Positions 224-63,204 of a stretch of DNA of 64,000 nt are shown in pieces. Position numbers and translations under genes: made by a program. Position 1 is the stretch's first letter, and every line of letters starts with the position of its first letter. Below the pieces are notes generated by a model that saw nothing but the letters and a program-made list of their open reading frames with translations, made no database searches and was not told the origin of the DNA. This DNA is from an uncultured Prevotella sp. (lineage in GTDB: Bacteria > Bacteroidota > Bacteroidia > Bacteroidales > Bacteroidaceae), in NCBI GenBank assembly GCA_946998205.1, contig CAMPYJ010000001.1, forward strand, positions 56,618-120,617, written 5' to 3'.

Positions 224-416
224 GGGCGGTTCTATAAATTAGCTTTGACAGATTGTGAGACTATTTTTGAGGTCAATTTGTTTGTGAGTGAAGGAGTATA
301 GCGAGCTATACGACTGAACGAACAAGCAAATTGAACCAAAAAGAGGCCACAAGATGACAAAACGTACAAAGGACGTCATAAAAAAAACTTTACGGTGGTA
401 ATTTATTGAACCGCCC
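224..416 (+). mobile_element. MITE-like element, short form (about 193 bp). Terminal inverted repeats GGGCGGTTCTATAAATTA...TAATTTATTGAACCGCCC, flanked by a TTCA target-site duplication.
   Basis: The 18-bp inverted repeats are read directly from the sequence. The same element recurs at least 12 times in the window. The spurious ORF 239..475 (GGSINYHRKVF peptide) lies inside it. Confidence 0.85.
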
Positions 417-547
417 TTCAGCCTGCGAAATGGCCGTTGGGTAAATAATCGCTTGGGTATGCCAACCATATCCAATAAATTGTCTATATTTGCAGGTGAA
501 AGAAAAACATTCTTTTTAATGAGTACTAATTAGATTTATTCTTTATT

Positions 548-3133
548 ATGACTTTACAATCTTTACACCAGTTTTTGGCTGTCGTCCTGCTGTTTGCAGC
601 AGGCTGTGGCGAAGCCCATGCGACGAACAAGGTAATCAACATCCAGAAGTCAACCGGCACCTGGACAAAGACCAACCCCGCAGGCGACTGGGCCGCGCAG
701 TGGACCAGCAACGACACCGACCCCATGCTCACCCTTTCCTGCGCTAAGAACAACATGGCCTACTACGACGGGCAGGAAGTGAAGCTCTTCACGGGCGATG
801 GCTCAGTGCGGTTCAGCGCCGACTATACCTTGGCCGTGACACCCGGATACGAAATCGTGAGCTACGAGTTCTCCTTCTCATCCGAGAACGCCGGACGGAA
901 GATTGTGGTGACACCACGGGGGGCTTCCCAACTGTCGTCGGACGATCCCGCGCAATGGCAAGCCGTGAAGGTGGCAGACATCCACGCTTCCGCCGCCACG
1001 TTCAACGTGAGACACGCCACGCAGACCGAGGCTGGATTCGCACGCCTGAAGAACGTACAGGTAACCGTGGCCAAGGTCTCTGATTCACAAGGCTTCCAGC
1101 CACTGTACATCACGCGTCCCGGCCAGCATCCCTATCGCATACCGGCCTTGGCTTGCGTGCACGACGGCACCTTGCTGGCCTTCTCCGACTACCGTCCGGG
1201 TGGTTCGGACATCGGTTATGGCGAGGTTGACATTCAGTTGCGGACTTCTGCCGACCATGGTGCCACATGGACTAAGGCACGTACCATTGCCAATGGAACA
1301 GGAACGGGCACCGGACTTGACTATGGCTTCGGCGACGCCGCCGTGGTAGCCGACCGCGAGAGCAATGACGTGCTCATGGTGTGCGTGGCAGGACACATTC
1401 CCTATCAAACGGCCAACTACCAAGAAGGACGCCCCCTGCCAATGGTGCGTTACCTCAGTACCGACGGAGGCGCAACTTGGGGAACTTATACCAACCTCAC
1501 AAGTCAGGTATACGGGCTTTTTGACGGAAGCCGGGGAGGTGCCGTGAAAAGCATGTTCGCCGGCTCGGGCAAACTGTGCCAGAGCAGTACGGTGAAGCAT
1601 GGCTCGCACTACCGCGTGTACTTACCCGTGTGTGCCCGTGACGGTGGCAACCGCGTGCTGTATTCAGACGACTTCGGGGCTACCTGGAAGGTTCTGGGAG
1701 GAAAAGACGCACGCCCCGCACCTGGTGGCGATGAGCCAAAGTGCGAGGAGCTGCCCGACGGACGGGTGCTGCTCTCAAGCCGCGTCAACGGTGGACGGCT
1801 GTTCAACTTTTACACCTATACTGACGAGGCGTCGGGTGAGGGCTCGTGGGACGCAGTGGCCAAGTCGGACGCTGCCAACAAAGGCACCTCGGCTGCGAAC
1901 AACTCATGCAACGGCGATATCATGATACTGCCCGTCAAGCGGAATGCTGACGGCAAACAGATGTTCCTGGCACTGCAAAGCGTACCGTTCGGACCGAACA
2001 GAACCAACGTGGGCATCTACTACAAGGCTTTGGAGAGCATAAACGACTACCAGACGCCCGAAGTCTTCGCACGCAACTGGACGGGAAAAAAGCAAATATC
2101 ACACATAGGTTCGGCTTACAGCACCATGGTGTGGCAAAAAGACAACAGGCTGGGATTCCTCTACGAGGAGGAAACCTACGGTGCAAGCTACACCAACGTG
2201 TACAAGGCCATGACGCTTGAGCAAATCACAGACAACGCCTTTAGCTACGATTCCACGGTGCCACGCCAAACCGAGACTGCCGACCCCATACAGCAAACAG
2301 ACCTGGGTACGGCTCATTACCTGCTGGGATTCAAAGGAGTGGGATACCCCAAAGCTGATGCCGAGAGCCGAACGAGACTGCAAAGCATTTACCAGACACC
2401 AGGCAAATACAACAAGAACCAACTGTATGCTGCCATCAAGAAATATGCGAACGACGCGAACGTGGAGCTGCCGGAAGACGGAATGCTGTACACCCTGAAA
2501 TTCATAGGAAAGGATAAACAAGCGTTCTTGCTTGACTATACCGATGGCAAAATTGCCACGCGGCCAATGACGACAGATGAGACCCCGGGTGCGTCGGCCA
2601 AATTCAAGGCGCATGTTCTGTCTAATGGGAAACTGGCTTTCGAGACCATGGATGGAAAGTACCTGAGCTATCCCACCAAGACGCCAGGCCCGAGCTGGCT
2701 CACCAACTTCAGCACCAGCGGTGTGACCGACGGACTGGATGAGGATGCCAACGCACTGGATTTGCAAAAAGCAGCCGAAGGCTCTCACATAGAGTCGTCG
2801 GGCATCCTTGACCTGTTTGGCAATTTTTTCATTCATTCCAAGCGCGGAAACCGCACCGACAATCAGCAGAAGGTGATGGGATACTGGGTGATGAACACGC
2901 AGGACAACACTTTCGACGGTGCGGGAGCCCCTTTCCTTACCAACAAGTTCACGTCGATGTTACGCATCGAGTACAAGGGAAAGCCTACGGGCATTCAGCA
3001 GGTGGACAGTGATGCCGCCAAGGACACGGTAGCAATCTACAATCTGTCGGGACAGCGCATGGATACGGACAGGCTGTCAGAACTGAAGCCTGGCGTTTAT
3101 ATTGTCAACGGCAGGAAAATGGTGGTGAGATAG
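548..3133 (+). CDS. nanH: Exo-alpha-sialidase (BNR/Asp-box family) with a T9SS C-terminal sorting domain.
   Basis: It has a signal peptide, the sialidase RIP motif (YRIPALA) and several Asp-box repeats (SADHGATW, STDGGATW, SDDFGATW). The C-terminus ...IYNLSGQRMD...KPGVYIVNGRKMVVR is a typical T9SS CTD. Confidence 0.85.
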   Translation: MTLQSLHQFLAVVLLFAAGCGEAHATNKVINIQKSTGTWTKTNPAGDWAAQWTSNDTDPMLTLSCAKNNMAYYDGQEVKLFTGDGSVRFSADYTLAVTPGYEIVSYEFSFSSENAGRKIVVTPRGASQLSSDDPAQWQAVKVADIHASAATFNVRHATQTEAGFARLKNVQVTVAKVSDSQGFQPLYITRPGQHPYRIPALACVHDGTLLAFSDYRPGGSDIGYGEVDIQLRTSADHGATWTKARTIANGTGTGTGLDYGFGDAAVVADRESNDVLMVCVAGHIPYQTANYQEGRPLPMVRYLSTDGGATWGTYTNLTSQVYGLFDGSRGGAVKSMFAGSGKLCQSSTVKHGSHYRVYLPVCARDGGNRVLYSDDFGATWKVLGGKDARPAPGGDEPKCEELPDGRVLLSSRVNGGRLFNFYTYTDEASGEGSWDAVAKSDAANKGTSAANNSCNGDIMILPVKRNADGKQMFLALQSVPFGPNRTNVGIYYKALESINDYQTPEVFARNWTGKKQISHIGSAYSTMVWQKDNRLGFLYEEETYGASYTNVYKAMTLEQITDNAFSYDSTVPRQTETADPIQQTDLGTAHYLLGFKGVGYPKADAESRTRLQSIYQTPGKYNKNQLYAAIKKYANDANVELPEDGMLYTLKFIGKDKQAFLLDYTDGKIATRPMTTDETPGASAKFKAHVLSNGKLAFETMDGKYLSYPTKTPGPSWLTNFSTSGVTDGLDEDANALDLQKAAEGSHIESSGILDLFGNFFIHSKRGNRTDNQQKVMGYWVMNTQDNTFDGAGAPFLTNKFTSMLRIEYKGKPTGIQQVDSDAAKDTVAIYNLSGQRMDTDRLSELKPGVYIVNGRKMVVR

Positions 3134-3440
3134 AATGCTTGCCCTACAACACAGGGATGCAGGAGCAACCAATCGGTATGTAATGACAGCGGATGTGCGA
3201 ACCAGCACGGATAGCTCATGGAAGGACAATGTTGTAGTACAACAAACGAAACTTTAAGTGTGAATAAGCAGGAACCGCTCCCATAGAGGTTCCTGCTCAT
3301 ACTTTCCTTTTCATGCAATCCTATTCCTCGTAATGTTGCACCAGCAGAACACCACCATGTTTCAGACTGCATGGTAAAGGAGTATAAACCCCTTGAATAT
3401 CCAGAATAAAGCCAGCCTGCAAAATGAGCCACACGCCCTC

Positions 3441-3493
3441 CAAAAAAAAGGGGGAGGCAAACATCACATTAAGTTTGCCCCCACCCTTTTTTT
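3441..3493. terminator. Bidirectional intrinsic terminator between the convergent sialidase and lipoprotein genes.
   Basis: A GC-rich hairpin (GGGGGAGGCAAAC / GTTTGCCCCCCACCC) is flanked by an A8 run upstream and a T7 run downstream. Confidence 0.6.
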
Positions 3494-3545
3494 AGAAGGT
3501 GTTTATCAGCAAGTGGTGCTTATATTTCCACTTGCCCCTTTATGC

Positions 3546-7269: not shown

Positions 7270-7528
7270 GGGCGGTTCTATAAATTACCGCCGTAAAGTT
7301 TTTTTGTATGTTTGACAGTTTACGTTTTGTCATCTTGCGGTCTCTTTTTATATAAAACAGGCTGCGCCTCAACAATTCAAACAAGTTTGATTGTATTCGG
7401 CTTGCTCCGTTTTTGGTTCAATTTGTTTGTTCGTTCAGTCGTATAGCCCGCTATACTCCTTCACTCACAAACAAATTGACCACAAAAACAGCCTCGCAAT
7501 CTGACAAAGCTAATTTATAGAACCGCCC
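7270..7528 (-). mobile_element. MITE-like element, long form (about 259 bp), with a CTTA target-site duplication.
   Basis: It has the same inverted repeats plus a roughly 65-70 bp internal module (CGGAGCAAGCCGAATACAATCAAACTTGTTTGAATTGTTGAGGCGCAGCCTGTTTTATATAAAAAGAGTC). CTTA occurs on both flanks. Confidence 0.85.
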
Positions 7529-7592: not shown

Positions 7593-9260
<1,668 letters not shown>

Positions 9261-23606: not shown

Positions 23607-23799
23607 GGGCGGTTCTATAAATTAGCTTTGTCAGATTGCGAGGCTGTTTTTGTGGTCAATTTGTTTGTGAGTGAAGGAGTATAGCGGGCTATACGACTGA
23701 ACGAACAAACAAATTGAACCAAAAAGAGACCGCAAGATGACAAAACGTAAACTGTCCAACATACAAAAAACTTTACGGCGGTAATTTATAGAACCGCCC
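23607..23799 (+). mobile_element. MITE-like element, short form, with a TTAA target-site duplication.
   Basis: It has the inverted repeats and TTAA on both flanks. It lies 37 bp downstream of the helicase gene end. Confidence 0.85.
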
Positions 23800-27587: not shown

Positions 27588-27789
27588 GGCTGGTTCTATA
27601 AATTACCACCGCACATAGTCATTAAATGTTTATGAAATACGTTTTGTTATCTTTTGGCTTCTTTTTGGTTCAAAATGTAAGTTCGTTCAGTCGTGTAGCT
27701 CGCTACACTCCTTCACTCTCTTGCATTTTGACCTCAAAAATAAGCTCAAAATCTAACAAAGCTAATTTATAGAACCAGCCAAACCACGA
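27588..27789 (-). mobile_element. MITE-like element, a diverged short copy.
   Basis: The repeats are degenerate (GGCTGGTTCTATAAATTA...TAATTTATAGAACCAGCC). It starts 6 bp after the EamA stop codon. Confidence 0.7.
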
Positions 27790-41307: not shown

Positions 41308-41559
41308 GGGTGGTTCTATAAATTGCCACCGTAAAGTTTTTTTATGTCAGTCTTTCTTCTTATCTTGTTGACTCTTTTTATATAAAACAGGCTGCGCCTC
41401 AACAAATCAAACAAGTTTGATTGTATTCGGCTTGCTCCGTTTTTGGTTCAATTTGTTTGTTCGTTCAGTCGTATAGCCTGCTATACTCCTTCACTCACAA
41501 ACAAATTGACCAAAAAAAATAGTCGCACAATCTCTCTAAGCTAATCTATAAAGCCGCCC
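41308..41559 (-). mobile_element. MITE-like element, long form, with an ATTA target-site duplication.
   Basis: The repeats are GGGTGGTTCTATAAATTG...TAATCTATAAAGCCGCCC. ATTA occurs on both flanks. Confidence 0.8.
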
Positions 41560-44825: not shown

Positions 44826-45083
44826 GGGCGGTTCTATAAATTACCGCCGTAAAGTTTTTTGTATGTTGGACAGTTTACGTTTTGTCATCTTGCGGTCTCT
44901 TTTTATATAAAACAGGCTGCGCCTCAACAATTCAAACAAGTTTGATTGTATTCGGCTTGCTCCGTTTTTGGTTCAATTTGTTTGTTCGTTCAGTCGTATA
45001 GCCCGCTATACTCCTTCACTCACAAACAAATTGACCACAAAAACAGTCTCACAATCTGTCAAAGCTAATTTATAAAACCGCCC
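44826..45083 (-). mobile_element. MITE-like element, long form.
   Basis: Both repeats are intact. No clear target-site duplication is visible. Spurious ORF 44692..44910 overlaps it. Confidence 0.85.
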
Positions 45084-45124
45084 ATATGTCCAAAAGTTGC
45101 ATTTCTTAATTGAACTTACGACTT

Positions 45125-45141
45125 AATTTATAGAACACCCC
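45125..45141. repeat. Solo terminal-repeat fragment of the MITE (TAATTTATAGAACACCCC).
   Basis: An isolated repeat-like 17-mer lies about 40 bp beyond a full copy. Confidence 0.4.
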
Positions 45142-47690: not shown

Positions 47691-47764
47691 ACATATTTGG
47701 TTAAAAAATTGATAATATAAGTACGTTGTTGTTTTGCTTATTTAAAATAGAATTAATCTATATA

Positions 47765-48021
47765 GGGCGGTTCTATCAATCAGCTTTGACAGTTTGTGGG
47801 ACTATTTTTGAGGTCAATTTGTTTGTGAGTGAAGGAGTATAGCGAGCTATACGGCTGAACGAACAAGCAAATTGAACCAAAAACGGAGCAAGCCGAATAC
47901 AATCAAACTTGTTTGAATTGTTGAGGCGCAGCCTGTTTTATATAAAAAGAGTCCACAAGATGACAAAACGTAAAAACACTGACATAAAAGAACTTTACGG
48001 TGGTAATTTATAGAACCGCCC
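47765..48021 (+). mobile_element. MITE-like element, long form.
   Basis: It has the inverted repeats (one repeat carries point changes: GGGCGGTTCTATCAATCA). Spurious ORF 47847..48029 overlaps it. Confidence 0.85.
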
Positions 48022-48187: not shown

Positions 48188-50302
48188 TTATTGTACCACA
48201 AACTTAAAAACACCATTATTGTTTGTTTTTACAATGTAAACACCCGGTATCAAATGCAACGTTGCACAACCCTTGTTCTTTACGCTCAATGTATCCACTT
48301 GTTTCCCTTGAATGTCATAGACATTTACAATAGCGTCTTTGTTGGCACTTAGAGTTATTAGATTACCATTTTGCCATAGTTTTATAGGTCTTTTATTTTC
48401 ATTTACATAGCTAATAGATGAAGCTGCCGCTTTCATGGTGACAGGTCTCGTTCTATATTCCTTACCTGCTATTGACAAATCAGGGAAAGCATCTGTTTGC
48501 ATGCTGCAATACATCTCCGTCTCTTCTGTCAATTTAAAAGTAAATTTACCATCTACTTCTTCATAATATAACCCTTTCACGACAGGTAGTCCAGCGACAT
48601 TCTTATTCAACCATATATAAGTTGTAGGTTGAGGGGCGTTAGTAACACCTTTCAAATGATTAAACGCAGAAAGGTCTACGACATTTCCCCTTATCAATTC
48701 GGGAGTTATAAAATAAGGACGTTGTGGAGCATAAAGATAATTTTCCATATTACGCTTTTCAGGCAACATGTACATTGGTATGGCATTATGTCCACATCTC
48801 ATCTCTTTCAACAGACTATAATCGGCTGGCAATTTTAAGTCATTAATTTGATTAAAGGCTATATTCACTCTTTCCAACTTATTCATTTTCGTTAAATTAA
48901 CAGCTGTAAGTTTGTTGCGTTCAATATTTAAATCTGTCAAATTGACGTAATCAGAAAGATTCAAAGCATTAATTTGATTACCAGCAAGCGAAAGTTTTAT
49001 TATCGTTTTAGTTTTCGGCAGTATTATTTCGCTTGCATAGCAACCATTAGCTGATAATTCTATTGCGTTTTTAAACAACGAAAAATCAACAGATTGCAAT
49101 CGGTTATTATCTAAAATTATACGTTTTGCAGGACTTTCAACCGTACCTTCATTAAAGCCACAGAATCCACTAAGCTCTGGAAATTTGAGCAAGTCTAAAT
49201 CCTTGCATTGTATTTGAACCAAATGCTTTTTATCAAATTCAGCATCAAGGAAATTGTGCTTCACGATGGTTTCTGATTTATTCAAAGTAATTTCTTGAAT
49301 AACTCCATCGCCCCAATTTATTAAACATGGACTATTATCCGTTGTGCTTGAAAGCGTTAAATCGAAAGTTAATTTTTCTGTCGTAAACTTATCTGTTGTA
49401 AATGCCGCATGAACAGCATCCAATCCTTTGGACTTTCCCGCTAATTTAATCGGCATAATACCATAACGGTCATTAATATTGTGCAGCTTTGGTAAAGCAG
49501 GGTTGTCTACAACACAATAAATTTCACAATCATAAGCTTCATTAAAAGTAAAGATTCCATCTTCTTCCTTATAAGTACTTGGATCTATGAGCATTGCTGG
49601 GTCGGCATTGTTGCCACGATTATTATAACGATACCATGAAAATTTAGAAATTGTACCTTTATATGATAAAAAGTCAGAAAGGTCAACAGTCATTCCTTTT
49701 ATTTTATTTTTCTCCAAATATACAGGACGCATCGGACCGTATGTATAGACAAAAGTCTTCTTTTCCGGAAATTCTGCTAAGGTGAGCCTATTCCTATCAA
49801 ACACAAAATTTCTTGTAGTTGGCGGCAATTTTAAGTCTTCTATCTCATTTGCATTACAAACAACATTTTCTAACTTTGGACAACCGGTAAGGTCTAATTT
49901 TTTAAGGGAACTCCATGCACATGAAAATTTTAGTAACTCCTTACAGTCAGTAAGTGTAATTTCAGATACTTTTCTATTGCTTATGATCGTAAACTCAATG
50001 AAAGGGCCACCCCAAACCTTAACTTTATGAATTTTGTTGACAGCCATGTCTGCAAAGTTATAGGACAGCAAATCAGCGTTACCATACGATATTTTCTCAT
50101 GAGTTCCTGTTCCATCACCATAATCTATATAATATTTTGTACCTGACTTGGCTTTAATTTTCATTGAAAATTGTTCTGTTGATGTTGATTTCGTTTCATA
50201 CGATGTCGTGAAATTAATTTCATCAGCATAAATTACCGTACCTATTCCCAACAGCGGAATCATAATTAATAAACTCAAAAAGTGATGTACTTTTTTCTTC
50301 AT
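48188..50302 (-). CDS. Leucine-rich-repeat surface protein with a T9SS C-terminal domain.
   Basis: It has LRR units (…NLSDYVNLTDLNIERNKLTAVNLTKMNKLERVNIAFNQINDLKL…). The C-terminus is ...NVYDIQGKQVD...IPGVYIVKTNNNGVFKFVVQ. The start is moved to the internal Met (MKKKVHHFLSLLIMIPLLGIG) that begins a signal peptide. Confidence 0.7.
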   Translation of the reverse strand: MKKKVHHFLSLLIMIPLLGIGTVIYADEINFTTSYETKSTSTEQFSMKIKAKSGTKYYIDYGDGTGTHEKISYGNADLLSYNFADMAVNKIHKVKVWGGPFIEFTIISNRKVSEITLTDCKELLKFSCAWSSLKKLDLTGCPKLENVVCNANEIEDLKLPPTTRNFVFDRNRLTLAEFPEKKTFVYTYGPMRPVYLEKNKIKGMTVDLSDFLSYKGTISKFSWYRYNNRGNNADPAMLIDPSTYKEEDGIFTFNEAYDCEIYCVVDNPALPKLHNINDRYGIMPIKLAGKSKGLDAVHAAFTTDKFTTEKLTFDLTLSSTTDNSPCLINWGDGVIQEITLNKSETIVKHNFLDAEFDKKHLVQIQCKDLDLLKFPELSGFCGFNEGTVESPAKRIILDNNRLQSVDFSLFKNAIELSANGCYASEIILPKTKTIIKLSLAGNQINALNLSDYVNLTDLNIERNKLTAVNLTKMNKLERVNIAFNQINDLKLPADYSLLKEMRCGHNAIPMYMLPEKRNMENYLYAPQRPYFITPELIRGNVVDLSAFNHLKGVTNAPQPTTYIWLNKNVAGLPVVKGLYYEEVDGKFTFKLTEETEMYCSMQTDAFPDLSIAGKEYRTRPVTMKAAASSISYVNENKRPIKLWQNGNLITLSANKDAIVNVYDIQGKQVDTLSVKNKGCATLHLIPGVYIVKTNNNGVFKFVVQ

Positions 50303-50777
50303 TACACATTTCAGTTTGTTAATAATATTTGTAATATTGCGCAAAATTAATACTATTTTGTAATAAAACAGAAAACAATAGTATTTATTTGACAAAAAAA
50401 AACACAAATATTGATTCAAGATAGAAGTACAAGGCCTGCGGGTATCTTGATATACTTAAAACCATGAGAGAGACTGCGGGGTCGCCTTTCGGTTGGGATG
50501 CTTAACCCCAAAGAGCATAACCGCCCATACAAATACAGAAAAGGGAGACACCGCGGGCTCAGCAAAGATAATTTGCCCTGTACTGTGAAACATCATCAAG
50601 CAACCGCAAGTAAAAGTTCGCAAATTTTAGTTCCGCCGATAAAGCAACTTCTTTATTTAAAATTAGATACGCCCTTACGACCATCTTACTTTTCAATCTC
50701 CATGCTTTTGCCCTCCAATCTGCATGCTATTGCACGGCAAAAGCATGCGTTTATGCGGCTAAAAGCATTGCTTTCAG

Positions 50778-50887
50778 TGCGGTTCTATAAATTAGCTTTG
50801 ACAGATTGCGAGATTGTTTTTTAGGCCGATTTGTTTGTAAGTGAAGGAGCATAGCGAGCTATACGACTGGACGAACAAGAAAATTAA
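50778..50887 (+). mobile_element. Truncated MITE: the first about 110 bp only, abutting a full inverted copy.
   Basis: It has the left repeat and internal sequence as far as ...ACAAGAAAATTAA, then breaks exactly where the next copy begins. Confidence 0.7.
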
Positions 50888-51083
50888 GTGCGGTTCTATA
50901 AATTACCATCGTAAAGTTCTTGTTCGGCAGTCTTTTTACGTTTTGTCATCTTGTTGACTCTTTTTGGTTCAATTTGCTTGTTCGTTCAGTCGTATAGCTC
51001 GCTATACTTCTTCACTCACTAACAAATTGACCTCAAAAAAAAATAGTCTCACAATCTGTCAAAGCTAATTTATAGAACCGCCC
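50888..51083 (-). mobile_element. MITE-like element, short form, arranged head-to-head with the truncated copy.
   Basis: The repeats are GTGCGGTTCTATAAATTA...TAATTTATAGAACCGCCC. Confidence 0.8.
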
Positions 51084-51323
51084 TTTATCGAGAAAGGTAA
51101 GGATTAAGAGAGGCGCGCCCTTCGCCGAGGAGACGCTGGCGTTGAAGCAAAAAAACATCGTTTCCCTGTTTCAACCACGAATGAGCGAATTTGGCAACGG
51201 CACGCGGTTGCGTTCAACCACGCCACCCGTCACTCAACGTTCAACGCCGCCGCCTTTCAATGAAGGAACCGCGTGCTTGTTTTTGACGACAATCAACTTT
51301 TTGAGACGGAAAAACCGCGGCAA

Positions 51324-53648
51324 TCATTCGTAAACATCGTCGATACCAAACCCACCTTCGTCTTGATCATCCTTGGCGCACGGATTGTACCCCTCAGGAA
51401 GTCCAAAAGAGGCGTCGGTTTTATATCCTAACGAAGCATCTTTATAAACTCTCTTCATGAAGTTGGCCCATATCGGCAAAGCCATGGTTGCCCCCTGCCC
51501 CATCCTCATGGAGTCGAAATGGATGTCACGGTCTTCACCGCCTACCCAGCACCCGCTCACCAGTTGTGGCGTGAACCCCATGAACCATGCGTCAGAATTT
51601 CGGTTCGTAGTACCCGTCTTCGCCCCAATCTCTCCTTCCATGTCGTACTTGAAGCGCAACCGGCTTGCCGTTCCTCTGTCAACGACTTCCTGGAGGAGCA
51701 CCAGCATCTTGTTGGCGCTCTCTGCGCTGATCACCTCGCTCATGCGGGGTTGGAAGGTTGCCAGCACGTTTCCCTCGTTATCTTCTATTTTAGAAACAAA
51801 CATCGGAGCGGTACGGATGCCGTGGTTGGCAAAGGCGGTGTATGCGCTGACCATTTCGCCAACCGAAACCTCGCAAGGCCCCAGGCAAAGCGCCATGGAG
51901 GGATGGATGTCTGGATTCCGGATGCCGAAGTCGTGAAGCATACTCACAAACAGCTGTGGGTTCAAGCGGCTCATCAGGTATGCCGAAATCCAATTGTTCG
52001 AGTTTGCCAAGCCCCACTTCAGCGTCACCATCGATCCGTATCGCCTTCTGTTTGCGTTTCTTGGCGTCCAAGGCCTACCCGCCACCATATACGTTCTCTG
52101 CACGTTGGGCGCCTGGTCGCAGGGCGAGAAGCCGTTCTCCATGGCCAAGGCATACAGAAAGGGCTTGATGGTAGACCCCACTTGCCGGCGTCCGGCCATC
52201 ACCATGTCATACATGAAGTGGTTGTAGTCAAGACCACCCACATACGCCTTCACTTGCCCCGTCTGCGGATCCATGCTCATGAAGCCTGCCCGAAGGAACG
52301 ACTTGTAATAACGGATGGAATCCATGGGTGTCATTATCGTATCCACGTCACCATGATAGGTAAACACCGACATGTCGACAGGCGTGTTGAACGACTTCTT
52401 TATTTCCGCGTCAGTGGCTCCCGCGGCCTTCAACACCCTATAACGCTCGCTTGCCATCATGGAGCGGTTCAATATCGACCTTATCTCTTTCGGTGTCAGA
52501 GCGTTGGTGAAGGGTGCGTTGGGGCATTTCGCCTTCTCTTTGTCAAATGCCGGTTGCAGAAACTTAGCCACATGGTTGTAAACGGCTTGTTCGGCATACA
52601 GCTGCATGCGCGAGTCGATGGTGGTGAACACCTTCAGGCCATCTGTGTAGACATTATAGGGCTTGCCGTTTTTCTTCAAATTCTTATTGCACCACCCATA
52701 AAGAGGGTCGGTTGCCCAAGCGATGGAGTCATAGACGAATTGACTCTGGTTCCATGAAGGATAATCGGAACGACGCGGATGAGAGGCCATCATGTATTGG
52801 CGAAGGAATTCTCGAAAATAGGTGGCCAATCCGTTTTTGTGATCCGTGCAATGAAAGTTCAGTTTCAGCTTCTCATCGGCATACCTGTGACATTCGGCTT
52901 TTGAAAGATATCCAGCCTTCTGCATTTGCCCAAGCACTACATTGCGTCGTTCGGTACATCGTTCGGGATAACGAATGGGATTATAAAGAGACGGATTCTT
53001 GCAAAGGCCGATGAGCATGGCCGACTCTGTGACCGTCAAGTCTTTGGGTTCTTTATTAAAATAGGTGTTCGCAGCAGTCTTGATGCCTACCGCGTTGTGG
53101 AGAAAATCAAAATAGTTAAGGTATAATGCGATGATTTCCTCCTTGGTGTAGTTGCGTTCCAACTTAACGGCGATGACCCATTCGATGGGTTTTTGCAGCA
53201 TTCGCTCCAACGTGCTCCGCGCCGTTTCTGAATAGAGCTGTTTAGCCAATTGCTGCGTGATGGTAGACCCCCCCCCTGCGTTCTCTCTTCCCAGAATCCC
53301 ACGTTTGACGATGGCGCGTCCCAATGCGAAAAAGTCGATTCCCGAATGTTCATAAAACCGCTCATCCTCGGTTGCCACCAAAGCGTGAACCAAATGTGGT
53401 GAAATTTTTGAATAAGGTATGACGATGCGGTTCTCCTTGTTAAAGTTCCAGGTTCCCAGCACCTTGCCATCTGCCGAATAGACCTGGGTCGCGAAACGAC
53501 TGATGGGGTTCTGAAGGTCTTCTACATCAGGCATGTAGCCTATCCACCCGTTCCATATCGCGACAAACGCGACCAGGACGGCACAAAATACCGCGGCCAA
53601 AGTTTTCCAAAGGAAATGAACAAATGCCTTTCTCATTCTCTGCGACAC
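51324..53648 (-). CDS. mrcA: Class A penicillin-binding protein (PBP1A), a bifunctional transglycosylase and transpeptidase.
   Basis: It has an N-terminal transmembrane anchor. The GT51 motifs are ATEDERFYEHSGID and GGSTITQQL. The transpeptidase motifs are STIKP, SNN and KTGT. Confidence 0.9.
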   Translation of the reverse strand: MSQRMRKAFVHFLWKTLAAVFCAVLVAFVAIWNGWIGYMPDVEDLQNPISRFATQVYSADGKVLGTWNFNKENRIVIPYSKISPHLVHALVATEDERFYEHSGIDFFALGRAIVKRGILGRENAGGGSTITQQLAKQLYSETARSTLERMLQKPIEWVIAVKLERNYTKEEIIALYLNYFDFLHNAVGIKTAANTYFNKEPKDLTVTESAMLIGLCKNPSLYNPIRYPERCTERRNVVLGQMQKAGYLSKAECHRYADEKLKLNFHCTDHKNGLATYFREFLRQYMMASHPRRSDYPSWNQSQFVYDSIAWATDPLYGWCNKNLKKNGKPYNVYTDGLKVFTTIDSRMQLYAEQAVYNHVAKFLQPAFDKEKAKCPNAPFTNALTPKEIRSILNRSMMASERYRVLKAAGATDAEIKKSFNTPVDMSVFTYHGDVDTIMTPMDSIRYYKSFLRAGFMSMDPQTGQVKAYVGGLDYNHFMYDMVMAGRRQVGSTIKPFLYALAMENGFSPCDQAPNVQRTYMVAGRPWTPRNANRRRYGSMVTLKWGLANSNNWISAYLMSRLNPQLFVSMLHDFGIRNPDIHPSMALCLGPCEVSVGEMVSAYTAFANHGIRTAPMFVSKIEDNEGNVLATFQPRMSEVISAESANKMLVLLQEVVDRGTASRLRFKYDMEGEIGAKTGTTNRNSDAWFMGFTPQLVSGCWVGGEDRDIHFDSMRMGQGATMALPIWANFMKRVYKDASLGYKTDASFGLPEGYNPCAKDDQDEGGFGIDDVYE

Positions 53649-55269: not shown

Positions 55270-55527
55270 GGGAGGTTCTATAAATTAGCTTTGACAGATT
55301 GTGAGACTATTTTTGAGGTCAATCTGCTTGTGAGTGAAGGAGTATAGCGAGCTATACGACTGAACAAACAAGCAAATTGAACCAAAAACGGAGCAAGCCG
55401 AATACAATCAAACTTGTTTGAATTGTTGAGGCGCAGCCTGTTTTATATAAAAAGAGTCCACAAGATGACAAAACGTAAAAAGACTGACACATAAAAAACT
55501 TTACGGTGGTAATTTATAGAACCGCCC
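55270..55527 (+). mobile_element. MITE-like element, long form, with an ATTAG target-site duplication.
   Basis: It has the inverted repeats, and ATTAG occurs on both flanks. It lies between pyrI and glyA. Confidence 0.85.
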
Positions 55528-57441: not shown

Positions 57442-58476
57442 TCAAGACTTCGGCAGGGACAGGACGATGGTTTTAAACCAATCTTTCATCACCCCACCCG
57501 CCTGGTTCTGCGAGTCAGACACCAAGACCAACACCCGAGAGCCGTCGGACAGTTTGGGGCCAAGGCACATACCCTCGAAGTTGGCTATATCATGATGAAA
57601 CAAAGAAAGATGGGTGGTCCATTTCGTCACCAACCGTTTTTTCAAGTAAGGCATTGCCGCATTCAGAGAATCTGCCCCATCGACTGGAACGCCTTTTTGA
57701 GGGTGTACCAAAAACAATTTGTTGTTGACAAAGGCACCCAGTTTAGAAGGTGGCGTATAAAATTCGCGTTCCAAGACCAATACACTGCCGTCATCGAGTG
57801 CCGTGACCTCCGGTACTCCCATGCCATAGAGATAAGCCTTCCTGTTTGCTTCAGGTGCGTCCATCAGATAGGCATACTGATGTAAAGGCCGAAAATCGGC
57901 GCTGAACGATTGCAAGCGCAACCTGTTACGAACCCCATTTGTCGCTGTGGCCTGTTCGCCATCGCCCAGAAGCGTGCCTTCGTTACACGTCCAAAACGTC
58001 TGGGTGAGTTCGTTAAAGCTCAACGACTCCAACCCATAATTGCCCCTATCCCGCTGATAGACAGCTGGGACGTACAGTCTCCGGCTCATGAGATGCCCAT
58101 CCATCGCATATTCTTTGATGGTGTTGTCGGCCTCACGGGTGACATACAGAGTTTTAGATGACGGCACATAAGTGACGGCCTCCATGTCCCCGTTTTTGTC
58201 CGTGTCGCCCCTGAAGCCAAGATTCTCCACATGCAGAACGTCACCGGTGACAGGGTCGAGAGCTATTTTGAAAAGGAAGAAACCATCCTGCGGCGACTTG
58301 TCACTAACCACCGCATACACACTGTCACCGATATAGGTGATGCCACTGTAATTCCCCGCCGGTATATCCTTCGGGAAACTACGTTGCTCGTTCACTCGCA
58401 CTACCGTCAGCGAGTCTTGAGACTTTACCGAACATACAGCCAACAAGAAGGCTGCCATTAAATAAATCTTTCTCAT
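57442..58476 (-). CDS. Secreted hypothetical protein, possibly in the phytase-like (esterase-like activity of phytase) beta-propeller family.
   Basis: It has a signal peptide. The family assignment is a weak recollection and needs an HMM search. Confidence 0.3.
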   Translation of the reverse strand: MRKIYLMAAFLLAVCSVKSQDSLTVVRVNEQRSFPKDIPAGNYSGITYIGDSVYAVVSDKSPQDGFFLFKIALDPVTGDVLHVENLGFRGDTDKNGDMEAVTYVPSSKTLYVTREADNTIKEYAMDGHLMSRRLYVPAVYQRDRGNYGLESLSFNELTQTFWTCNEGTLLGDGEQATATNGVRNRLRLQSFSADFRPLHQYAYLMDAPEANRKAYLYGMGVPEVTALDDGSVLVLEREFYTPPSKLGAFVNNKLFLVHPQKGVPVDGADSLNAAMPYLKKRLVTKWTTHLSLFHHDIANFEGMCLGPKLSDGSRVLVLVSDSQNQAGGVMKDWFKTIVLSLPKS

Positions 58477-58500: not shown

Positions 58501-58626
58501 AGCCAGAGGCAAACTTGTTTACCGTGATAAGGCACAGCCCATCATCAGCAAAGATGGTGCAAGCCGAAGCCAAAGGAAAACTTGTTTACTATGGTAAGGC
58601 ACAGCCCATCATCTGCAAAGGTAATA
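58501..58626. repeat. Tandem duplication, two copies of about 60 bp, in the region upstream of gene 57442..58476.
   Basis: The units are AGCCAGAGGCAAACTTGTTTACCGTGATAAGGCACAGCCCATCATCAGCAAAG and AGCCGAAGCCAAAGGAAAACTTGTTTACTATGGTAAGGCACAGCCCATCATCTGCAAAG, about 85% identical. Confidence 0.7.
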
Positions 58627-58712: not shown

Positions 58713-59726
58713 CTAATTCATAGTCTGTTGTCTACCTCTTCGAACAACAGACCTGAGCGTGAAATAGAGTTCTTCTTGGATTCTGAACATCCGCCATGAA
58801 AAGCGTAGCGGCATATACCCGAATTTATATTTTAACCTTTTATATAACCTGTGCACCTCGATACCACTCCATATCCGATGAAGTTCACGCATGCCCATCA
58901 CAGACTCCTCGGCAGAAAGCCGTTTTCTGTAAGAATAATGAAAATAATATAAATCTATCAATACCAGCCAGCGCACATTTTCATAAGTTGTTAACACATC
59001 ATCGCTTACGTTAAGTTGTATCAACTGCTTCTTCATACTTTCGTTGGCACGAAGATAATCAAACCTGCTTCCACCAATAACATGTGTTACAGAGTGGGGA
59101 TTGTAGTGGTAGTAGTACTCTCCATGACAACAACTCACTTGCTTAGAAAACAAATAATGCAGTCGTGTACTGTTATCATCACTGTAGGTCTTACACGTGT
59201 CATCGTACGGGAATTGTTTGAAAAGAGCGGTTTTCGCAGCATAAACACCGTGAATTTTCCACGTCAAGCTGTCTTTGAACGCCTCGTATCCAGACCTTTC
59301 GTCAAAAAAATCCATGTCATATTCCTGTGCGGTTGAATTGTCACCTCCAAGGGTGAGGAGCTTGAAAAGCACGCAGTCTACTTGTGGGTGTTTTTCAAAA
59401 ACCTGCAAAGCCTCTTCCAAAGCATCGGGCGCAAACGTATCATCGCAATCTAAAAACGTGGTGTAATGGGCGTTGATAAATTTAATTCCTTCGTTGCGGG
59501 CATGTGCTGCTCCATAGTTTTGACTTAAATGAAGAACCTCAATTCGCCGGTCAGCAGCAGCATACAATTGTAATATTTTCCAAGAATTGTCCGTAGAGCC
59601 GTCGTCTATACAAATCACTTGAATGTCTTTGAGGGTTTGTCGCAGCAACGAATCCAAGCATCTTTTCAGATACTCGCTGCCATTATAAACCGCCACCAAT
59701 ATCGCAAATGATGCTATTTTTTCCAT
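58713..59726 (-). CDS. Family 2 glycosyltransferase.
   Basis: It has the GT2 signature (FAILVAVYNGSEYLKRCLDSL...DDGSTD) and DCDD. The start is moved to an internal Met, giving a 13-bp overlap with the upstream Wzx gene. Confidence 0.7.
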   Translation of the reverse strand: MEKIASFAILVAVYNGSEYLKRCLDSLLRQTLKDIQVICIDDGSTDNSWKILQLYAAADRRIEVLHLSQNYGAAHARNEGIKFINAHYTTFLDCDDTFAPDALEEALQVFEKHPQVDCVLFKLLTLGGDNSTAQEYDMDFFDERSGYEAFKDSLTWKIHGVYAAKTALFKQFPYDDTCKTYSDDNSTRLHYLFSKQVSCCHGEYYYHYNPHSVTHVIGGSRFDYLRANESMKKQLIQLNVSDDVLTTYENVRWLVLIDLYYFHYSYRKRLSAEESVMGMRELHRIWSGIEVHRLYKRLKYKFGYMPLRFSWRMFRIQEELYFTLRSVVRRGRQQTMN

Positions 59727-61198
59727 ACTCGTAATTTCAAACGTGTCCACAAATCGGTCTTTTTTCTCAATATGCGCAACGACACCCACAGACTCAACAG
59801 GACGACCGCCACGCCCCCACCCCAATACAACCAGCCATGGGTTGACAACACCAAGGCGTAAGTCAACAAGCCCAGCATGAGTTGGATGCCTAAATATCGC
59901 CACACCGAATTGGACATATTATATTGATAGGTGGTGTGCATAAAATAAAATAGCATAAAAAAATCCAATGCAGCTACCAAGGTGACAGCCATTCCAGCAC
60001 CTAATAACTCATAATAGTGGAATCCTGCGATAACAGCAAGCACCAACACGACATCGTAGATAGCCTCTACGAGAAGGTACAGCCTCGAATTGCCTTTTGC
60101 CAACGGAATGTAAGCAATGGGTAGTTTGACAGCTCGCCAATACATCGCCAGCACCAAGGTCTGCACCATGGCCTGAAGCGACACGAACTCTTTACTATAC
60201 AGCAGCGGCAACAACACCGGAACACCTACCATGAACATCACCAACATAGGCGAAATGAGCAACAACGACACTTCTATCTGACTGTTGACCGTTTCGTTCA
60301 ACAGCGCGCCTGTGTGCTTGATGGACGACAAGCGTGGAAAGAAATCGGTTTCCATGGCAGAAAACACCAAACCCGCATACGTCATCGTCATCATATAAGC
60401 GGCATTAAACAAGCCAACGGTCTCTACCGATCCCAACACGTTAAGGTAGCGGCGTATCAGGAAATCGGCACCGCTTCCCAAAATACCTGCCAGCACAAAA
60501 GCCACTCCAATCTTGAGCATAGGACTCCCCTGCAACAATAAAGTTTTGCTCCAGTTAAAACGTATAGTGTATTGTCTATGAGAGTAATAAATGGTGAGCA
60601 GCATTTGTGTCAAGGCGACAATGATGAGTGAAGGAACAATAGCAGCCTTACGCCAGATGTAGAACAAAGGAATGGAGGTAATCAATGCGCCTACCATGTT
60701 GAGAAAAGAGATTTTCGCCAACGACTTGAGTTGTCGTAAGGCTTTCAAAATGGCCAACTCTCCTCCCGTCACCGCCATTAGGAATACCACTACCGACAGC
60801 AAAACGAAATGCAAAGAGTGGTCGCCCCAGCCAAAGACCCACCGACTGAGCATGGGACTTATCATCATGCACACAGCCATACCCAACAATGCCGTCAACA
60901 CGCTCCACAGACGCACACAGTCAATACAACGTCTCATGTAGGCCTCGTCGTGCTGTTCGAAAACAGCAGACAGTTCCCTGACGGCACTCATGCTTAATCC
61001 AAAATTAGTGGAGTCGCTAACCAGTTTGGTTGTGGAATTGAAGAGCGACATCAGCCCCATGCCCTCGGCACCGAGAAGAAGAGCCACCAACTTATTGCGA
61101 ACAATGCCTACCAAGATGCCAAGCCCTTGCACACCGCCAAAAAGACCAGTGTATTTTAAGATATGGGTATAGGTTTTATTGCGATTCTCGTTTGTCAT
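59714..61198 (-). CDS. wzx: Wzx-family oligosaccharide flippase (polysaccharide biosynthesis protein).
   Basis: It has about 12-14 transmembrane helices and the characteristic N-terminus (...YTGLFGGVQGLGILVGIVRNKLVALLLG...). Confidence 0.7.
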   Translation of the reverse strand: MTNENRNKTYTHILKYTGLFGGVQGLGILVGIVRNKLVALLLGAEGMGLMSLFNSTTKLVSDSTNFGLSMSAVRELSAVFEQHDEAYMRRCIDCVRLWSVLTALLGMAVCMMISPMLSRWVFGWGDHSLHFVLLSVVVFLMAVTGGELAILKALRQLKSLAKISFLNMVGALITSIPLFYIWRKAAIVPSLIIVALTQMLLTIYYSHRQYTIRFNWSKTLLLQGSPMLKIGVAFVLAGILGSGADFLIRRYLNVLGSVETVGLFNAAYMMTMTYAGLVFSAMETDFFPRLSSIKHTGALLNETVNSQIEVSLLLISPMLVMFMVGVPVLLPLLYSKEFVSLQAMVQTLVLAMYWRAVKLPIAYIPLAKGNSRLYLLVEAIYDVVLVLAVIAGFHYYELLGAGMAVTLVAALDFFMLFYFMHTTYQYNMSNSVWRYLGIQLMLGLLTYALVLSTHGWLYWGGGVAVVLLSLWVSLRILRKKTDLWTRLKLRVWKK

Positions 61199-61299: not shown

Positions 61300-61493
61300 G
61301 CAGGCGACTCTATAAATTACCACCGTAAACTTTTTTATGTCAGTCGTTTTTACGTTTTGTCATCTCGTGGACTCTTTTGCGTTCATTTTTTTTGTTCGGT
61401 CAGTCGTATAGCTCGCTATACTCCTTCACCCACTAACAAATTGACCTCAAAAATGATCTCGCAATCTGTCAAAGCCGATTTATAGAAACACCC
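61300..61493 (-). mobile_element. MITE-like element, a degenerate short copy.
   Basis: The repeats are diverged (GGCGACTCTATAAATTA...GATTTATAGAAACACCC). Spurious ORF 61255..61485 overlaps it. Confidence 0.65.
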
Positions 61494-61636: not shown

Positions 61637-61818
61637 GTTTTCAATTGCATAGACTTTGAACGTCAAAGGCGTGTGAATTGAACGCCAATGCCAATGACTT
61701 TGGAAACCAATGTCATTGGCATTGGCTCGCAAGGTGGATGCGCCCGCTCGCCTGCCGAGCGGTTTGCTCAAACTATGTGTCAGCAAACATGGCAAGATGT
61801 CGCACACCTGAAAAAACG
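61637..61818. repeat. Repeat B, copy 2.
   Basis: It matches 41052..41232. It contains a perfect 14-bp inverted repeat (CCAATGCCAATGAC / GTCATTGGCATTGG) and a second hairpin (CCGCTCG-cctgc-CGAGCGG). Confidence 0.6.
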
Positions 61819-62606: not shown

Positions 62607-62805
62607 GGGTGATTCTATAAATTAGCTTTGACAGGTTGTGAGACTATTTTCTGAGGTCAATTCGTTTGTGTGTGTGAAGGAGTATAGAGAGCTGTACGAC
62701 TAAACGAACAAGCAAATTGAACCAAAAAAAAGAGTCCACAAGATGACAAAACGTAAAAAAAAACTGACCCCAAAAACTTTACAGGGGTAATTTACAGAAC
62801 CGCAC
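62607..62805 (+). mobile_element. MITE-like element, short form, with a TTAA target-site duplication, inserted immediately after the rpsP stop codon.
   Basis: It begins at the base after the TAA stop. TTAA occurs on both flanks. The repeats are slightly degenerate (GGGTGATTC...GAACCGCAC). Confidence 0.8.
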
Positions 62806-62839
62806 TTAATATAAGCTTCTTAAAAAGGAATATTGAAAA

Positions 62840-62876
62840 AGGTCAACATGTATCATTACATGTTGACCTTTTTTTC
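62840..62876. terminator. Strong bidirectional intrinsic terminator (rpsP terminator).
   Basis: It is a perfect 13-bp stem (AGGTCAACATGTA-tcat-TACATGTTGACCT) followed by T7 and preceded by an A-run. Confidence 0.8.
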
Positions 62877-62919
62877 TGATAATAAGCATAAAGGTATACA
62901 ACCACTTCATTAAGATATA

Positions 62920-63113
62920 GGGTGGTTCTATCAATTAGCTTTGACAGATTGTGAGACTATTTTTTGAGGTCAATTTGTTTGTGAGTGAAGGAGTATAGCG
63001 AGCTATACGACTGAACGAACAAGCAAATTGAACTAAAAAGAGGCCACAACATGACAAAACGTAAAAACACTGACATCATAAAAACATTACGGTGGTAATT
63101 TATAGAACCGCCC
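62920..63113 (+). mobile_element. MITE-like element, short form.
   Basis: The inverted repeats are intact (GGGTGGTTCTATCAATTA...TAATTTATAGAACCGCCC). No clean target-site duplication is visible. Confidence 0.85.
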
Positions 63114-63187
63114 TTTAAGAAGTTTCCACCTTATCTTTTGTCGCACTTGGAACTAAAAGTCATCTGTTGCCATCTATCGGTATTTGA

Positions 63188-63204
63188 TTATTATAGAACC
63201 GCCC
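63188..63204. repeat. Solo terminal-repeat fragment of the MITE (TTATTATAGAACCGCCC).
   Basis: An isolated repeat-like 17-mer lies about 75 bp beyond a full copy. Confidence 0.4.

Follow-up and report, generated by a model that had tools for sequence, protein, structure and literature searches.

The window, by which we mean the whole 64-kb stretch of DNA analysed here, contains 12 full-length copies of an element bounded by the terminal inverted repeats GGGCGGTTCTATAAATTA / TAATTTATAGAACCGCCC, as detected by an nhmmer profile search, along with a half copy and two solo ends. The 18-nt terminal repeat was matched 25 times in the window with at most three mismatches, against 0.02 matches expected by chance. 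Each copy was assigned to the strand that reads from end A to end B, end A being the terminal repeat followed by GCTTTGACAG and end B the terminal repeat followed by CCRCCGTAAAG. Two size classes were found, one of about 193 bp (seven copies) and one of 252-259 bp (five copies) that carries a 65-nt internal module; copy length in the family as a whole is 190-260 bp. All window copies are intergenic, lying between long ORFs with Pfam-supported products, and they are split six to six between the two orientations, with a density of 0.195 per kb. The original prediction had counted 12 near-full copies, one half copy and two solo fragments, and the profile search combined with a repeat scan returned the same tally, with start coordinates that agreed within 1-2 nt. 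Its description of about one copy per 5 kb, all intergenic and in both orientations, held as well.

Reading the window from its left end, a short copy of 193 bp (224..416, plus strand, target site duplication or TSD TTCA) is followed by a long copy of 259 bp with the 65-nt module (7270..7528, minus strand, TSD CTTA), and then by a second 193-bp copy (23607..23799, plus strand, TSD TTAA) flanked by convergent genes for an M20 peptidase and a UvrD-like helicase. The short copy at 27588..27780 (minus strand) begins 5 nt past the stop codon of an EamA transporter gene and represents a diverged subfamily, with GGCTGG...CCAGCC ends, 71-78% identity to the other short copies and compensatory changes in its central stem. 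Next comes a long copy of 252 bp (41308..41559, minus strand, TSD ATTA). A gene for an LRR protein (45150-47690, minus strand) is flanked on both sides by long copies: one of 258 bp (44826..45083, minus strand), located between the stop codon of the gene and its terminator, and one of 257 bp (47765..48021, plus strand), inverted relative to the first. A solo terminal repeat with two mismatches (45124..45141, minus strand) adjoins the former and is the remnant of an older copy. Further on, a half copy comprising the end-A arm (50777..50887, plus strand, profile positions 3-109) is cut off at the start of the next copy, a short one of 196 bp that abuts it (50888..51083, minus strand). A long copy of 258 bp (55270..55527, plus strand, TSD ATTA) lies between pyrI and glyA, and a short degenerate copy of 192 bp (61302..61493, minus strand) has terminal repeats with three and four mismatches. 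The short copy of 199 bp at 62607..62805 (plus strand) is placed exactly at the rpsP stop codon, the TAA of which falls within its TSD TTAA; the rpsP intrinsic terminator, GGTCAACATGT-loop-ACATGTTGACC then T7, is found outside the element (62841..62875, plus strand). Finally, a short copy of 194 bp (62920..63113, plus strand), present in all 10 of the 10 conspecific contigs examined, precedes a solo terminal repeat with four mismatches (63187..63204, minus strand).

We then looked at the ends of the element in the window and in other Prevotellaceae loci. Immediately next to the terminal repeats, 59 of 86 copies carry a perfect 4-bp target duplication. This duplication is AT-rich, with the consensus TTAA and the profile T / T-or-A / A-or-T / A (TWWA), and insertion frequently occurs at a gene's TAA stop codon. 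Across 61 aligned copies, the 18-nt repeats are conserved. In two contigs of a sister lineage (L220 and L221), the pyrI-glyA site is empty and carries a single ATTA; when the left and right flanks were aligned separately, homology of the filled to the empty site stopped exactly at the terminal repeats. Thus, the inverted repeats proposed in the original prediction are the true boundaries of the element. An additional copy with the TSD TGAA was found in only two of the ten conspecific contigs, and a nested insertion with the TSD TTAA was found in an old solo end. The 4-bp duplications and the empty site with its single ATTA indicate a true MITE, presumably mobilized in trans by a transposase of the cut-and-paste type. 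The element is therefore a MITE by its size, which falls within the range of about 50-1000 bp for this class, its non-coding nature, its inverted repeats at the true ends, its fixed-length TSD and its dispersed, polymorphic copies; none of them lies within a larger IS, which sustains the first reading of a dense MITE family. A DDE-type transposase acting in trans would bind the terminal repeats and make a 4-bp staggered cut. The piggyBac and IS1380-like elements have a strict TTAA target and CC...GG ends; this group was rejected, as TTAA is the commonest duplication yet makes up just 12 of the 57 perfect TSDs, and the element ends are GGG...CCC.

Stop codons occur in all six frames, and no frame is open through the element. 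One end of the element, when translated, gives the peptide GGSINY[HR]RKVF, which explains the recurring spurious GGSINYHRKVF ORFs that had been attributed to the element. Identity among window copies ranges from 71 to 98%. Elsewhere in the family, variants at one locus (L086) contain internal tandem repeats, and a 159-bp variant occurs in four others (L231-L234).

At least 84 loci carry the family, essentially all of them in Prevotellaceae, and the hosts are gut and oral bacteria of the Prevotella family; these loci were picked by an exact match to the terminal repeat, which favours well-preserved copies. The earlier pointer to Bacteroidales thus holds, with Prevotellaceae as the more exact placement. 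Exact 18-mer matches in Niabella and Pedobacter were discarded, as the rest of the element is absent there; we calculate that 596 Gb would contain about 17 such exact 18-mers by chance. Matches in MAGs assigned to Lachnospiraceae, Oscillospiraceae, Peptococcaceae and Acidaminococcaceae were taken as mis-binned contigs, the proteins on these contigs matching Prevotella contigs at >60% identity. In a related MAG, about 0.09 extra copies per kb were found around each match. The density in the window is unusually high. Considering these two densities and the fact that public assemblies of the host species often break at the element, hundreds of copies genome-wide are plausible, a number beyond what 64 kb can count.

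Folded as a single strand, the element forms an imperfect hairpin of about 70 pairs, in which 92.8% of cells are paired. Changes on both sides were observed for 28 pairs, and compensatory cells numbered 150, whereas shuffles gave 40.5 ± 5.1 and slid controls no more than 48, showing that the hairpin is maintained by compensatory substitutions. Within it are three conserved tandem G·A/A·G mismatches, which are retained in 84-95% of the 61 copies while adjacent pairs covary. As RNA, the A-to-B strand folds 11 kcal/mol better than its complement. Long palindromic structures are common among MITEs, and this one may serve transposition rather than the host.

To place the copies relative to transcription units, we considered the terminators at two loci. 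The 62607 copy lies upstream of the rpsP terminator and is thus within the rpsP 3' UTR, with its A-to-B strand in the sense orientation; in sister species without the element, a terminator directly follows rpsP. Likewise, the canonical terminator of the LRR-protein gene is at 44812-44795, which puts the 44826 copy in the 3' UTR of that gene, again with the A-to-B strand sense. From these terminator positions, copies located between a stop codon and a terminator are probably transcribed into 3' UTRs. The element itself was rejected as a terminator: a simple terminator scan found none inside it that was convincing or consistent, one subfamily giving a weak G-T-rich match. In tandem intergenic regions, 30 copies were co-oriented with the genes and 10 anti-oriented (two-sided binomial p of about 0.002 by our own arithmetic), a count from 40 sites at which genes were called crudely as the longest ORFs. 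Convergent regions showed the opposite trend relative to the nearest gene (4:11), which was not significant. Replication-strand bias was rejected as the source of this orientation bias, since the GC skew is mostly negative, with a cumulative skew that falls almost throughout, while the window copies are evenly divided between strands.

Between species, copies that share an insertion site differ by 0-2 nt, as against 78-96% identity (a 4-22% difference) in their flanks, and these orthologous copies are at least 7 nt away from the nearest other copies. This near-total conservation includes segments that are variable between copies. Conservation of such segments exceeds what a hairpin function needs, so another cause is possible, for instance highly localized recombination or repair that uses the other palindrome arm as its template.

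Altogether, these results are best explained by a Prevotellaceae MITE family mobilized in trans, many copies of which would have been selectively kept as structured 3'-UTR or intercistronic modules, a reading to which we give a probability of roughly 85%. The hairpin shape, the preferred orientation and the near-invariance between species suggest that the host may now use many copies, and these sequence-based signs of co-option are credible but unproven. After insertion, selection would retain many copies as structured modules in 3' UTRs or between cistrons, where they would resemble the Correia and ERIC elements in having orientation-dependent effects on mRNA stability and processing; the disfavoured orientation would be removed because it is polar or yields antisense transcripts. 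If the bias and the conservation reflect function, the element would be a dispersed natural RNA hairpin module in 3' UTRs, including that of rpsP, and post-transcriptional control in Prevotella would become directly testable. A stronger version, of a module spread by a transposon with a TTAA-like target and then domesticated, strongly maintained by purifying selection in 3' UTRs and in intercistronic positions, with a preferred orientation and three near-invariant sheared G·A tandems, and setting mRNA 3'-end stability, processing or insulation genome-wide, is in our opinion distinctly doubtful. If true, it would make the family a Bacteroidota counterpart of Correia and ERIC, and one for which the evolutionary evidence of constraint is stronger than for those two systems.

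The most serious rival, with a considerable but less than even chance of being right, is a purely selfish MITE, in which the hairpin would serve only transposition (joining of the ends, folding of single-stranded DNA), the orientation bias would reflect purged harmful insertions, and the identity of orthologues would come from recent spread or recombination. The full set of transposon hallmarks is consistent with this, as are the identity values among window copies, which fit waves of amplification, the occurrence of the same loci without the element in sister species, and the lack of a terminator or Rfam motif in the element. However, orthologues that bear site-specific substitutions and stand at least 7 nt from other copies differ so little despite the divergence of their flanks, and non-canonical G·A pairs are conserved amid covarying neighbours; neither is expected of neutral decay.

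It is also possible, although rather unlikely, that the copies derive from an annotated, already catalogued IS, as fragments of its ends or through internal deletion. IS5-group elements produce 4-bp duplications at YTAR targets and have ends starting with GG or GA. The 4-bp TSD and the ends starting with GG would suit the IS5 group or the IS701 type, according to the ISfinder family tables; compared with the IS5 group in particular, the element has a 4-bp TSD and a GGG start, and TTAA fits YTAR, but TATA, TTAT, TTTA and TAAA do not, and the scans below linked no IS5-type transposase to it. Against this origin, no transposase bounded by the repeats was found in about 1 Mb of Prevotellaceae DNA. 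Searching the Prevotellaceae loci, the window and ten 20-kb conspecific contigs for terminal-repeat pairs 0.6-4 kb apart with at most six mismatches paired only separate MITE copies, and neither proteins repeated between loci nor long-range inverted repeats with a TSD revealed a parent IS in the loci and the window. In viral contigs, an 18-mer scan gave two loci, both MITE variants or chance matches, and a 14-nt core scan gave 120, almost all due to chance, with one true MITE at a contig end. A metagenome scan for the terminal repeat followed by A or T, a suffix chosen to skip the two usual MITE ends, gave four loci and no IS, and in phage and plasmid collections neither the whole element nor either of its ends had a meaningful BLAST match. 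A 798-bp version at one locus (L017, 87-884) was rejected as a transposase carrier, its 113-aa ORF having no significant Pfam match; it also includes an unrelated GC-rich palindromic repeat. The terminal-repeat sequence was not found in the literature searched, and the accessible part of a 2024 MITE census gives Bacteroidota MITEs in bulk only (PMC11602168). The original prediction had also failed to link a parent IS, and in the DNA scanned here the search it called for, for a longer autonomous element with the same repeats, gave none. As no autonomous parent was found, we infer the transposase family and mechanism from the TSD alone; such a transposase, with its TTAA-like 4-bp target, would be a candidate genetic tool for a tool-poor group. 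Should the family derive from an annotated IS, the parent would get a name and the MITE verdict would be unchanged.

A multicopy small-RNA gene or cis-regulatory RNA family, copied by duplication without transposition, is very improbable. It would account for the strong covariation of a conserved fold and for the difference in folding energy between strands. TAnnTTTG is the Bacteroidetes -7 promoter motif, and visual inspection of the A-to-B strand showed two matches close to end A, which make a candidate promoter only; the -33 element is absent at the expected spacing from them. The precise target duplications and the empty site indicate insertion, the copies occur in both orientations relative to genes, and a covariance-model search of Rfam gave only chance-level miRNA-type matches (E >= 0.18, far under gathering scores). 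Least probable of all is a REP/REPIN-like element moved on single-stranded hairpins by a Y1 (HUH, RAYT-type) transposase instead of a DDE enzyme: the element is, like REP/REPIN, hairpin-forming, very abundant and persistent at orthologous sites, its hairpin is long and has strand-specific conserved mismatches, and in one conspecific contig (L232) rpsP lies about 8 kb from a Y1_Tnp gene (PF01797). However, REP/REPIN-RAYT systems have a single-copy Y1 transposase flanked by the repeats, and the L232 gene, the only one seen, has no flanking element; moreover, REP/REPIN and IS200/IS605-type elements have neither target duplications nor terminal inverted repeats, whereas here copy-specific 4-mers are duplicated on both sides of terminal repeats and present once in the empty site.

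Among known systems, the Correia elements (NEMIS) of Neisseria are non-coding, about 100-160 bp long, bounded by inverted repeats and present in hundreds of intergenic copies near genes; they are co-transcribed, form long hairpins and affect mRNA processing. The Prevotellaceae element is similarly small, non-coding, intergenic, bounded by inverted repeats and able to form a long hairpin. Membership was rejected, as Correia elements have a TA duplication and 26-bp terminal repeats, whereas the Prevotellaceae element has a 4-bp TWWA duplication, a terminal repeat of another sequence and length, a host in another phylum and no sequence similarity; a role in RNA processing is only inferred for it. 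The ERIC/IRU elements of enterobacteria and Yersinia are imperfect palindromes, about 127 bp long, that occupy transcribed intergenic regions and affect upstream-mRNA stability in an orientation-dependent way. They are the closest analogue for the 30:10 bias, an effect that would apply here by analogy only, and they differ in sequence, size, host range and target. Nearer in taxonomy, the Porphyromonas gingivalis MITEs (MITE239, MITE464/PgRS and BrickBuilt) are non-autonomous, with IS-like 12-nt terminal repeats of the GAGACCTTTGCA type matching IS5-family ISPg elements, 10-20 copies per genome and irregular TSDs (PMC4596501). They belong to the same order, Bacteroidales, and some contain internal tandem repeats as the L086 variants do, but their terminal repeats are unrelated to those described here. 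In a SPLASH preprint, a near-palindromic MITE-like repeat of about 159 bp in Segatella copri is described as intergenic and associated with LRR genes, with no target duplications seen (10.1101/2024.01.18.576133). It shares with our family the bacterial family, the intergenic position, the LRR-gene association seen at 44-48 kb of the window and the size of the 159-bp variant; the supplementary text examined for that preprint does not contain the terminal-repeat core, and the two repeats could not be linked.

In the human gut and oral microbiota, Prevotella and Segatella are both dominant and difficult to study. A repeat found every 5 kb or so breaks short-read assemblies, yields spurious ORF calls and marks differences in gene order between strains, and knowing its sequence and ends allows better assembly, annotation and strain comparison. 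Many near-identical copies would also serve as substrates for rearrangement. The view of the element as a major shaper of the chromosome gains support here from gene-order breaks between conspecific contigs, which coincide with element ends. The neighbourhood of rpsP is unlike that of the MITE-free sister species, and the right end of the 61302 copy is itself a synteny break between conspecific contigs.

We searched the window for the 18-nt terminal repeat GGGCGGTTCTATAAATTA on both strands, allowing up to three mismatches, and found 25 matches against the 0.02 expected from shuffles. A profile of 79 aligned copies recovered all 12 full-length copies of the original prediction, with the same starts, together with its half copy (50777-50887); its two solo ends lie at 45124-45141 and 63187-63204. 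The element density was 0.195 copies per kb. Of the two size classes, the short one (192-199 bp) had seven members and the long one (252-259 bp) five, the long form corresponding to the short form plus a 65-nt internal module that is nearly always located within such elements. Identity among the window copies ranged from 71 to 93% for the short form and from 87 to 98% for the long form. The strand reading from end A to end B, the two differing ends of the element, was the plus strand for six copies and the minus strand for six. The recurring ORF peptide GGSINY[HR]RKVF, previously attributed to the element, was indeed one reading frame of one element end, and no open frame was found across the whole element.

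Evidence for transposition was looked for in 86 two-ended copies, taken from the window and from loci of an exact-repeat scan with one genome per species. A perfect 4-bp direct repeat directly abutted the GGGCGG...CCGCCC ends in 59 of the 86. The duplicated 4-mers lay within symmetric AT-rich flanks and differed between copies, with the profile T / T-or-A / A-or-T / A and TTAA as the commonest. The copy between pyrI and glyA (55270-55527) has ATTA on both sides; it was missing from two sister-lineage contigs (GlyA 95% identical), where a single ATTA was present and homology picked up again on both sides. Since the 4-mers vary and yet are duplicated, and since the empty site has one of them, the cut would be a staggered one of 4 bp, which points to a DDE-type transposase that would act in trans on the element. 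Among ten conspecific contigs, encoding an S16 identical to that of the window, two had one more copy, whose terminal repeats are exact and whose target-site duplication (TSD) is TGAA, and in four a copy with the TSD TTAA was nested within the remnant of an older one. The abutting duplications and the empty site bear out the original prediction of a MITE with true terminal inverted repeats. All structural features of a MITE were found save a demonstrated autonomous partner, and we consider the assignment secure.

No autonomous parent was found in the window, the fetched Prevotellaceae loci, the ten conspecific contigs, the viral and metagenome scans, or the phage and plasmid collections. The 4-bp duplication and the GG-initial ends would be compatible with IS5-group or IS701-type transposases as classified in ISfinder. 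Because the same terminal repeats bound other internal sequences in L016, L075, L017 (cargo form) and L086 (minisatellite forms), all fetched loci, it seems that one transposase may serve several non-autonomous families. The L017 unit (87-884, 798 bp, flanks TTTA/TTAT) contains, besides a different palindromic repeat that is GC-rich (GGGCTGAAAGCCC, CCCAGGGCAACGCCCTGGG), an ORF of 113 aa to which no Pfam family matched significantly. This unit may represent either a derivative with cargo or host DNA enclosed by two half copies. In L086, a contig classed as viral (IMGVR_UViG_2600255111_000002), the centre of two variants (1621-1793 and 8913-9049) was swapped for short tandem repeats with GTGGGACTAGG-type units, recalling the minisatellite-bearing BrickBuilt MITE of P. 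gingivalis. The P. gingivalis MITEs are taxonomically the closest, but their terminal repeats are unrelated to those of the Prevotella element. The latter does not show the traits that define REP/REPIN or Correia elements, and its behaviour is closest to that of Correia and ERIC elements. Our literature search found no paper describing it, and it may be listed anonymously in a 2024 MITE census. A preprint on S. copri mentions a MITE-like repeat in passing (10.1101/2024.01.18.576133), which cannot be tied to the present element.

The exact-repeat scan, with one genome per species, gave at least 84 loci. Among the matches listed, almost all were from Prevotella or other Prevotellaceae, including P. 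corporis, P. ihumii, Hoylesella timonensis, Prevotella sp. BV3P1 and many gut MAGs. Full copies were also present on eight MAG contigs carrying Firmicutes labels (Acidaminococcaceae, Lachnospiraceae, Oscillospiraceae and Peptococcaceae; L003, L017, L038, L047, L053, L054, L069 and L072). Since several of these encode proteins more than 60% identical to those of Prevotella contigs, they look like mis-binned Prevotella contigs, in which case the MITE could act as a contamination marker in MAGs. Niabella and Pedobacter were rejected as hosts, their matches being at chance level in number and without the rest of the element. In gene content, the window is ordinary chromosome (pyrBI, glyA, rpsP, PBP1a, a UvrD-like helicase and an ABC-F protein), and the closest named relatives of its GlyA are from Prevotella and Hoylesella. 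Around the matches, extra copies amounted to about 0.09 per kb for one gut MAG and to nearly none for the other species. Given this and the high density in the window, the family is widespread but strongly expanded in only a few lineages. Public assemblies of the window's species often terminate at the element.

We then compared the surroundings of rpsP. Upstream of this gene, four different gene contents were found among the ten conspecific contigs. Between contigs L232 and L231, homology sets in at a copy's outer base (9171, the element starting at 9174), and between L229 and L226 it starts inside the last terminal repeat of a copy (9411). Three sister lineages, without the element, have the order epimerase - rpsP - terminator - PBP1a, while in the window's species copies bracket rpsP, which lies elsewhere relative to both epimerase and PBP1a. 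Moreover, long copies in inverted orientation stand on either side of the LRR-protein gene (45150-47690), as in a composite transposon. The homology breaks at copy ends, the altered rpsP neighbourhood and the bracketed LRR gene lend support to the earlier view that the family shapes the chromosome. The region 40000-52000 is a block of low GC content (38-40%, compared with about 47% elsewhere) with three large minus-strand genes, one for an LRR-repeat protein and two without Pfam match, and five MITE copies between them. The block holds five copies in 10 kb. In L229 (9260-9400), the MITE upstream of rpsP is cut down to its last 17 nt. Before these stands an inverted repeat, near-perfect and about 40 bp long (CCTTAATTCCGCAGCATAAATACTTGTAAGAACTCCAAGTG...), possibly a further small palindromic element sharing this junction. 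The variable region of L232 (1477-5303) contains an IS200/IS605-type Y1 transposase gene (PF01797), unrelated to the MITE ends, adjoining an MmeI-type restriction-modification gene.

The entire element is an imperfect palindrome. Past the common 18 nt the ends diverge, end A continuing with GCTTTGACAG and end B with CCRCCGTAAAG. By folding back and pairing with the terminal repeat, the end-B segment makes a small hairpin at the terminus. RNA folding of the short consensus gave -79.3 kcal/mol for the A-to-B strand and -67.9 kcal/mol for the opposite strand. The fold predicted from the consensus was checked against 61 distinct short copies in alignment: over its 70 pairs, 92.8% of cells were paired, and 28 pairs showed changes on both sides. 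Compensatory cells numbered 150, whereas shuffling the columns gave 40.5 ± 5.1 and sliding the partners by 1-3 columns gave no more than 48. Subfamilies changed in a coordinated manner (ATTGTGAGAC/GTCCACAAGAT versus ATTGCGAGGC/GACCGCAAGAT, GTATAGC/GCTATAC versus GTTATGC/GCATAAC) and yet retained the same asymmetric mismatches, a pattern that speaks for inheritance with compensating changes and against fold-back elements having arisen independently. The central stem holds three tandem G·A/A·G mismatches with 4-nt spacing, retained in 84-95% of copies, and the Watson-Crick pairs between them covary. On the other strand these mismatches would be C·T/T·C. Together with the excess of G·U cells (167 versus 100 A·C cells), the tandems mildly favour the A-to-B strand as the folding strand. 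No Rfam family matches the element.

Copies are intergenic and often in contact with a stop codon. The TAA stop of rpsP lies within the TSD (TTAA) of the copy at 62607-62805, and the rpsP intrinsic terminator follows downstream (62841-62875); in MITE-free sister species a terminator comes directly after rpsP. Lying between stop and terminator, this copy is predicted to be within the rpsP 3' UTR. Similarly, the copy at 44826-45083 is located between the stop of the LRR-protein gene and a canonical terminator (44812-44795), and both copies have the A-to-B strand as sense. L241, from a more distant relative whose S16 is 83% identical, has a copy (3105-3135) with the variant end GGGTGGTTCTAAAAATTAGCC that starts just after the rpsP terminator and runs to the contig end; it represents an independent insertion near rpsP. 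Neighbours could be called for 69 copies from crude longest-ORF gene calls, giving 40 co-directional, 16 convergent and 13 divergent regions. In the co-directional ones, the A-to-B strand was sense for 30 copies and antisense for 10 (binomial two-sided p ~0.002). Replication direction does not explain this bias, because the GC skew of the window is mostly negative, with cumulative skew falling almost throughout, while its copies split 6:6. The bias could instead come from an RNA hairpin acting orientation-dependently on the upstream mRNA, from the polarity of a hairpin and U-run, which transcription coming in at end B would meet first, or from -7-like boxes (TAGCTTTG, TATTTTTG) close to end A that would drive antisense transcription.

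Three insertion sites were shared between different species representatives (L028, L032 and L044; L050 and L077; L037, L059 and L061). Since orthologous copies were 0-2 nt apart over about 193 nt and the closest non-orthologous copy in the whole data set was at least 7 nt away, the copies at these sites are site-specific and must, by this comparison, each be inherited from one insertion. Their flanks were 78-96% identical over up to 400 nt, with differences starting 10-25 nt from the ends. In four displayed pairs, counted by eye, the element had 3 differences in about 773 nt and its neighbouring DNA about 70 in about 950 nt; the slowdown at the three sites is roughly 20-fold. The choice of loci by an exact 18-nt repeat cannot account for this near-identity. 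The simplest reading is that the inserted copies have been kept by purifying selection, yet the orthologous conservation is more complete than hairpin function alone would require, so that another cause may contribute. Altogether, structure, orientation and cross-species conservation suggest that many copies may have been co-opted.

Other repeats and RNAs were present in the window. A further repeat, about 180-200 bp long and unrelated to the MITE (41051-41229, 61637-61815, partial at 28243-28306), has two long copies 78% identical, and each of its copies has a MITE copy within about 80-460 bp. It holds a perfect 15-bp hairpin (GCCAATGCCAATGAC...GTCATTGGCATTGGC); its RNA fold has z = -5.4, and it showed no Rfam match and no convincing ORF. 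Two 53-nt direct repeats (58501-58553 and 58568-58620; 89% identical, 67 nt start to start; repeat family D13) lie in the gap between the minus-strand ORFs 57442-58476 and 58713-59903. Finally, a FopS small RNA was detected at 18001-18071 on the plus strand (Rfam RF04319, 72.7 bits versus a gathering score of 56), a family described in Bacteroides and here located in a Prevotella-type chromosome.
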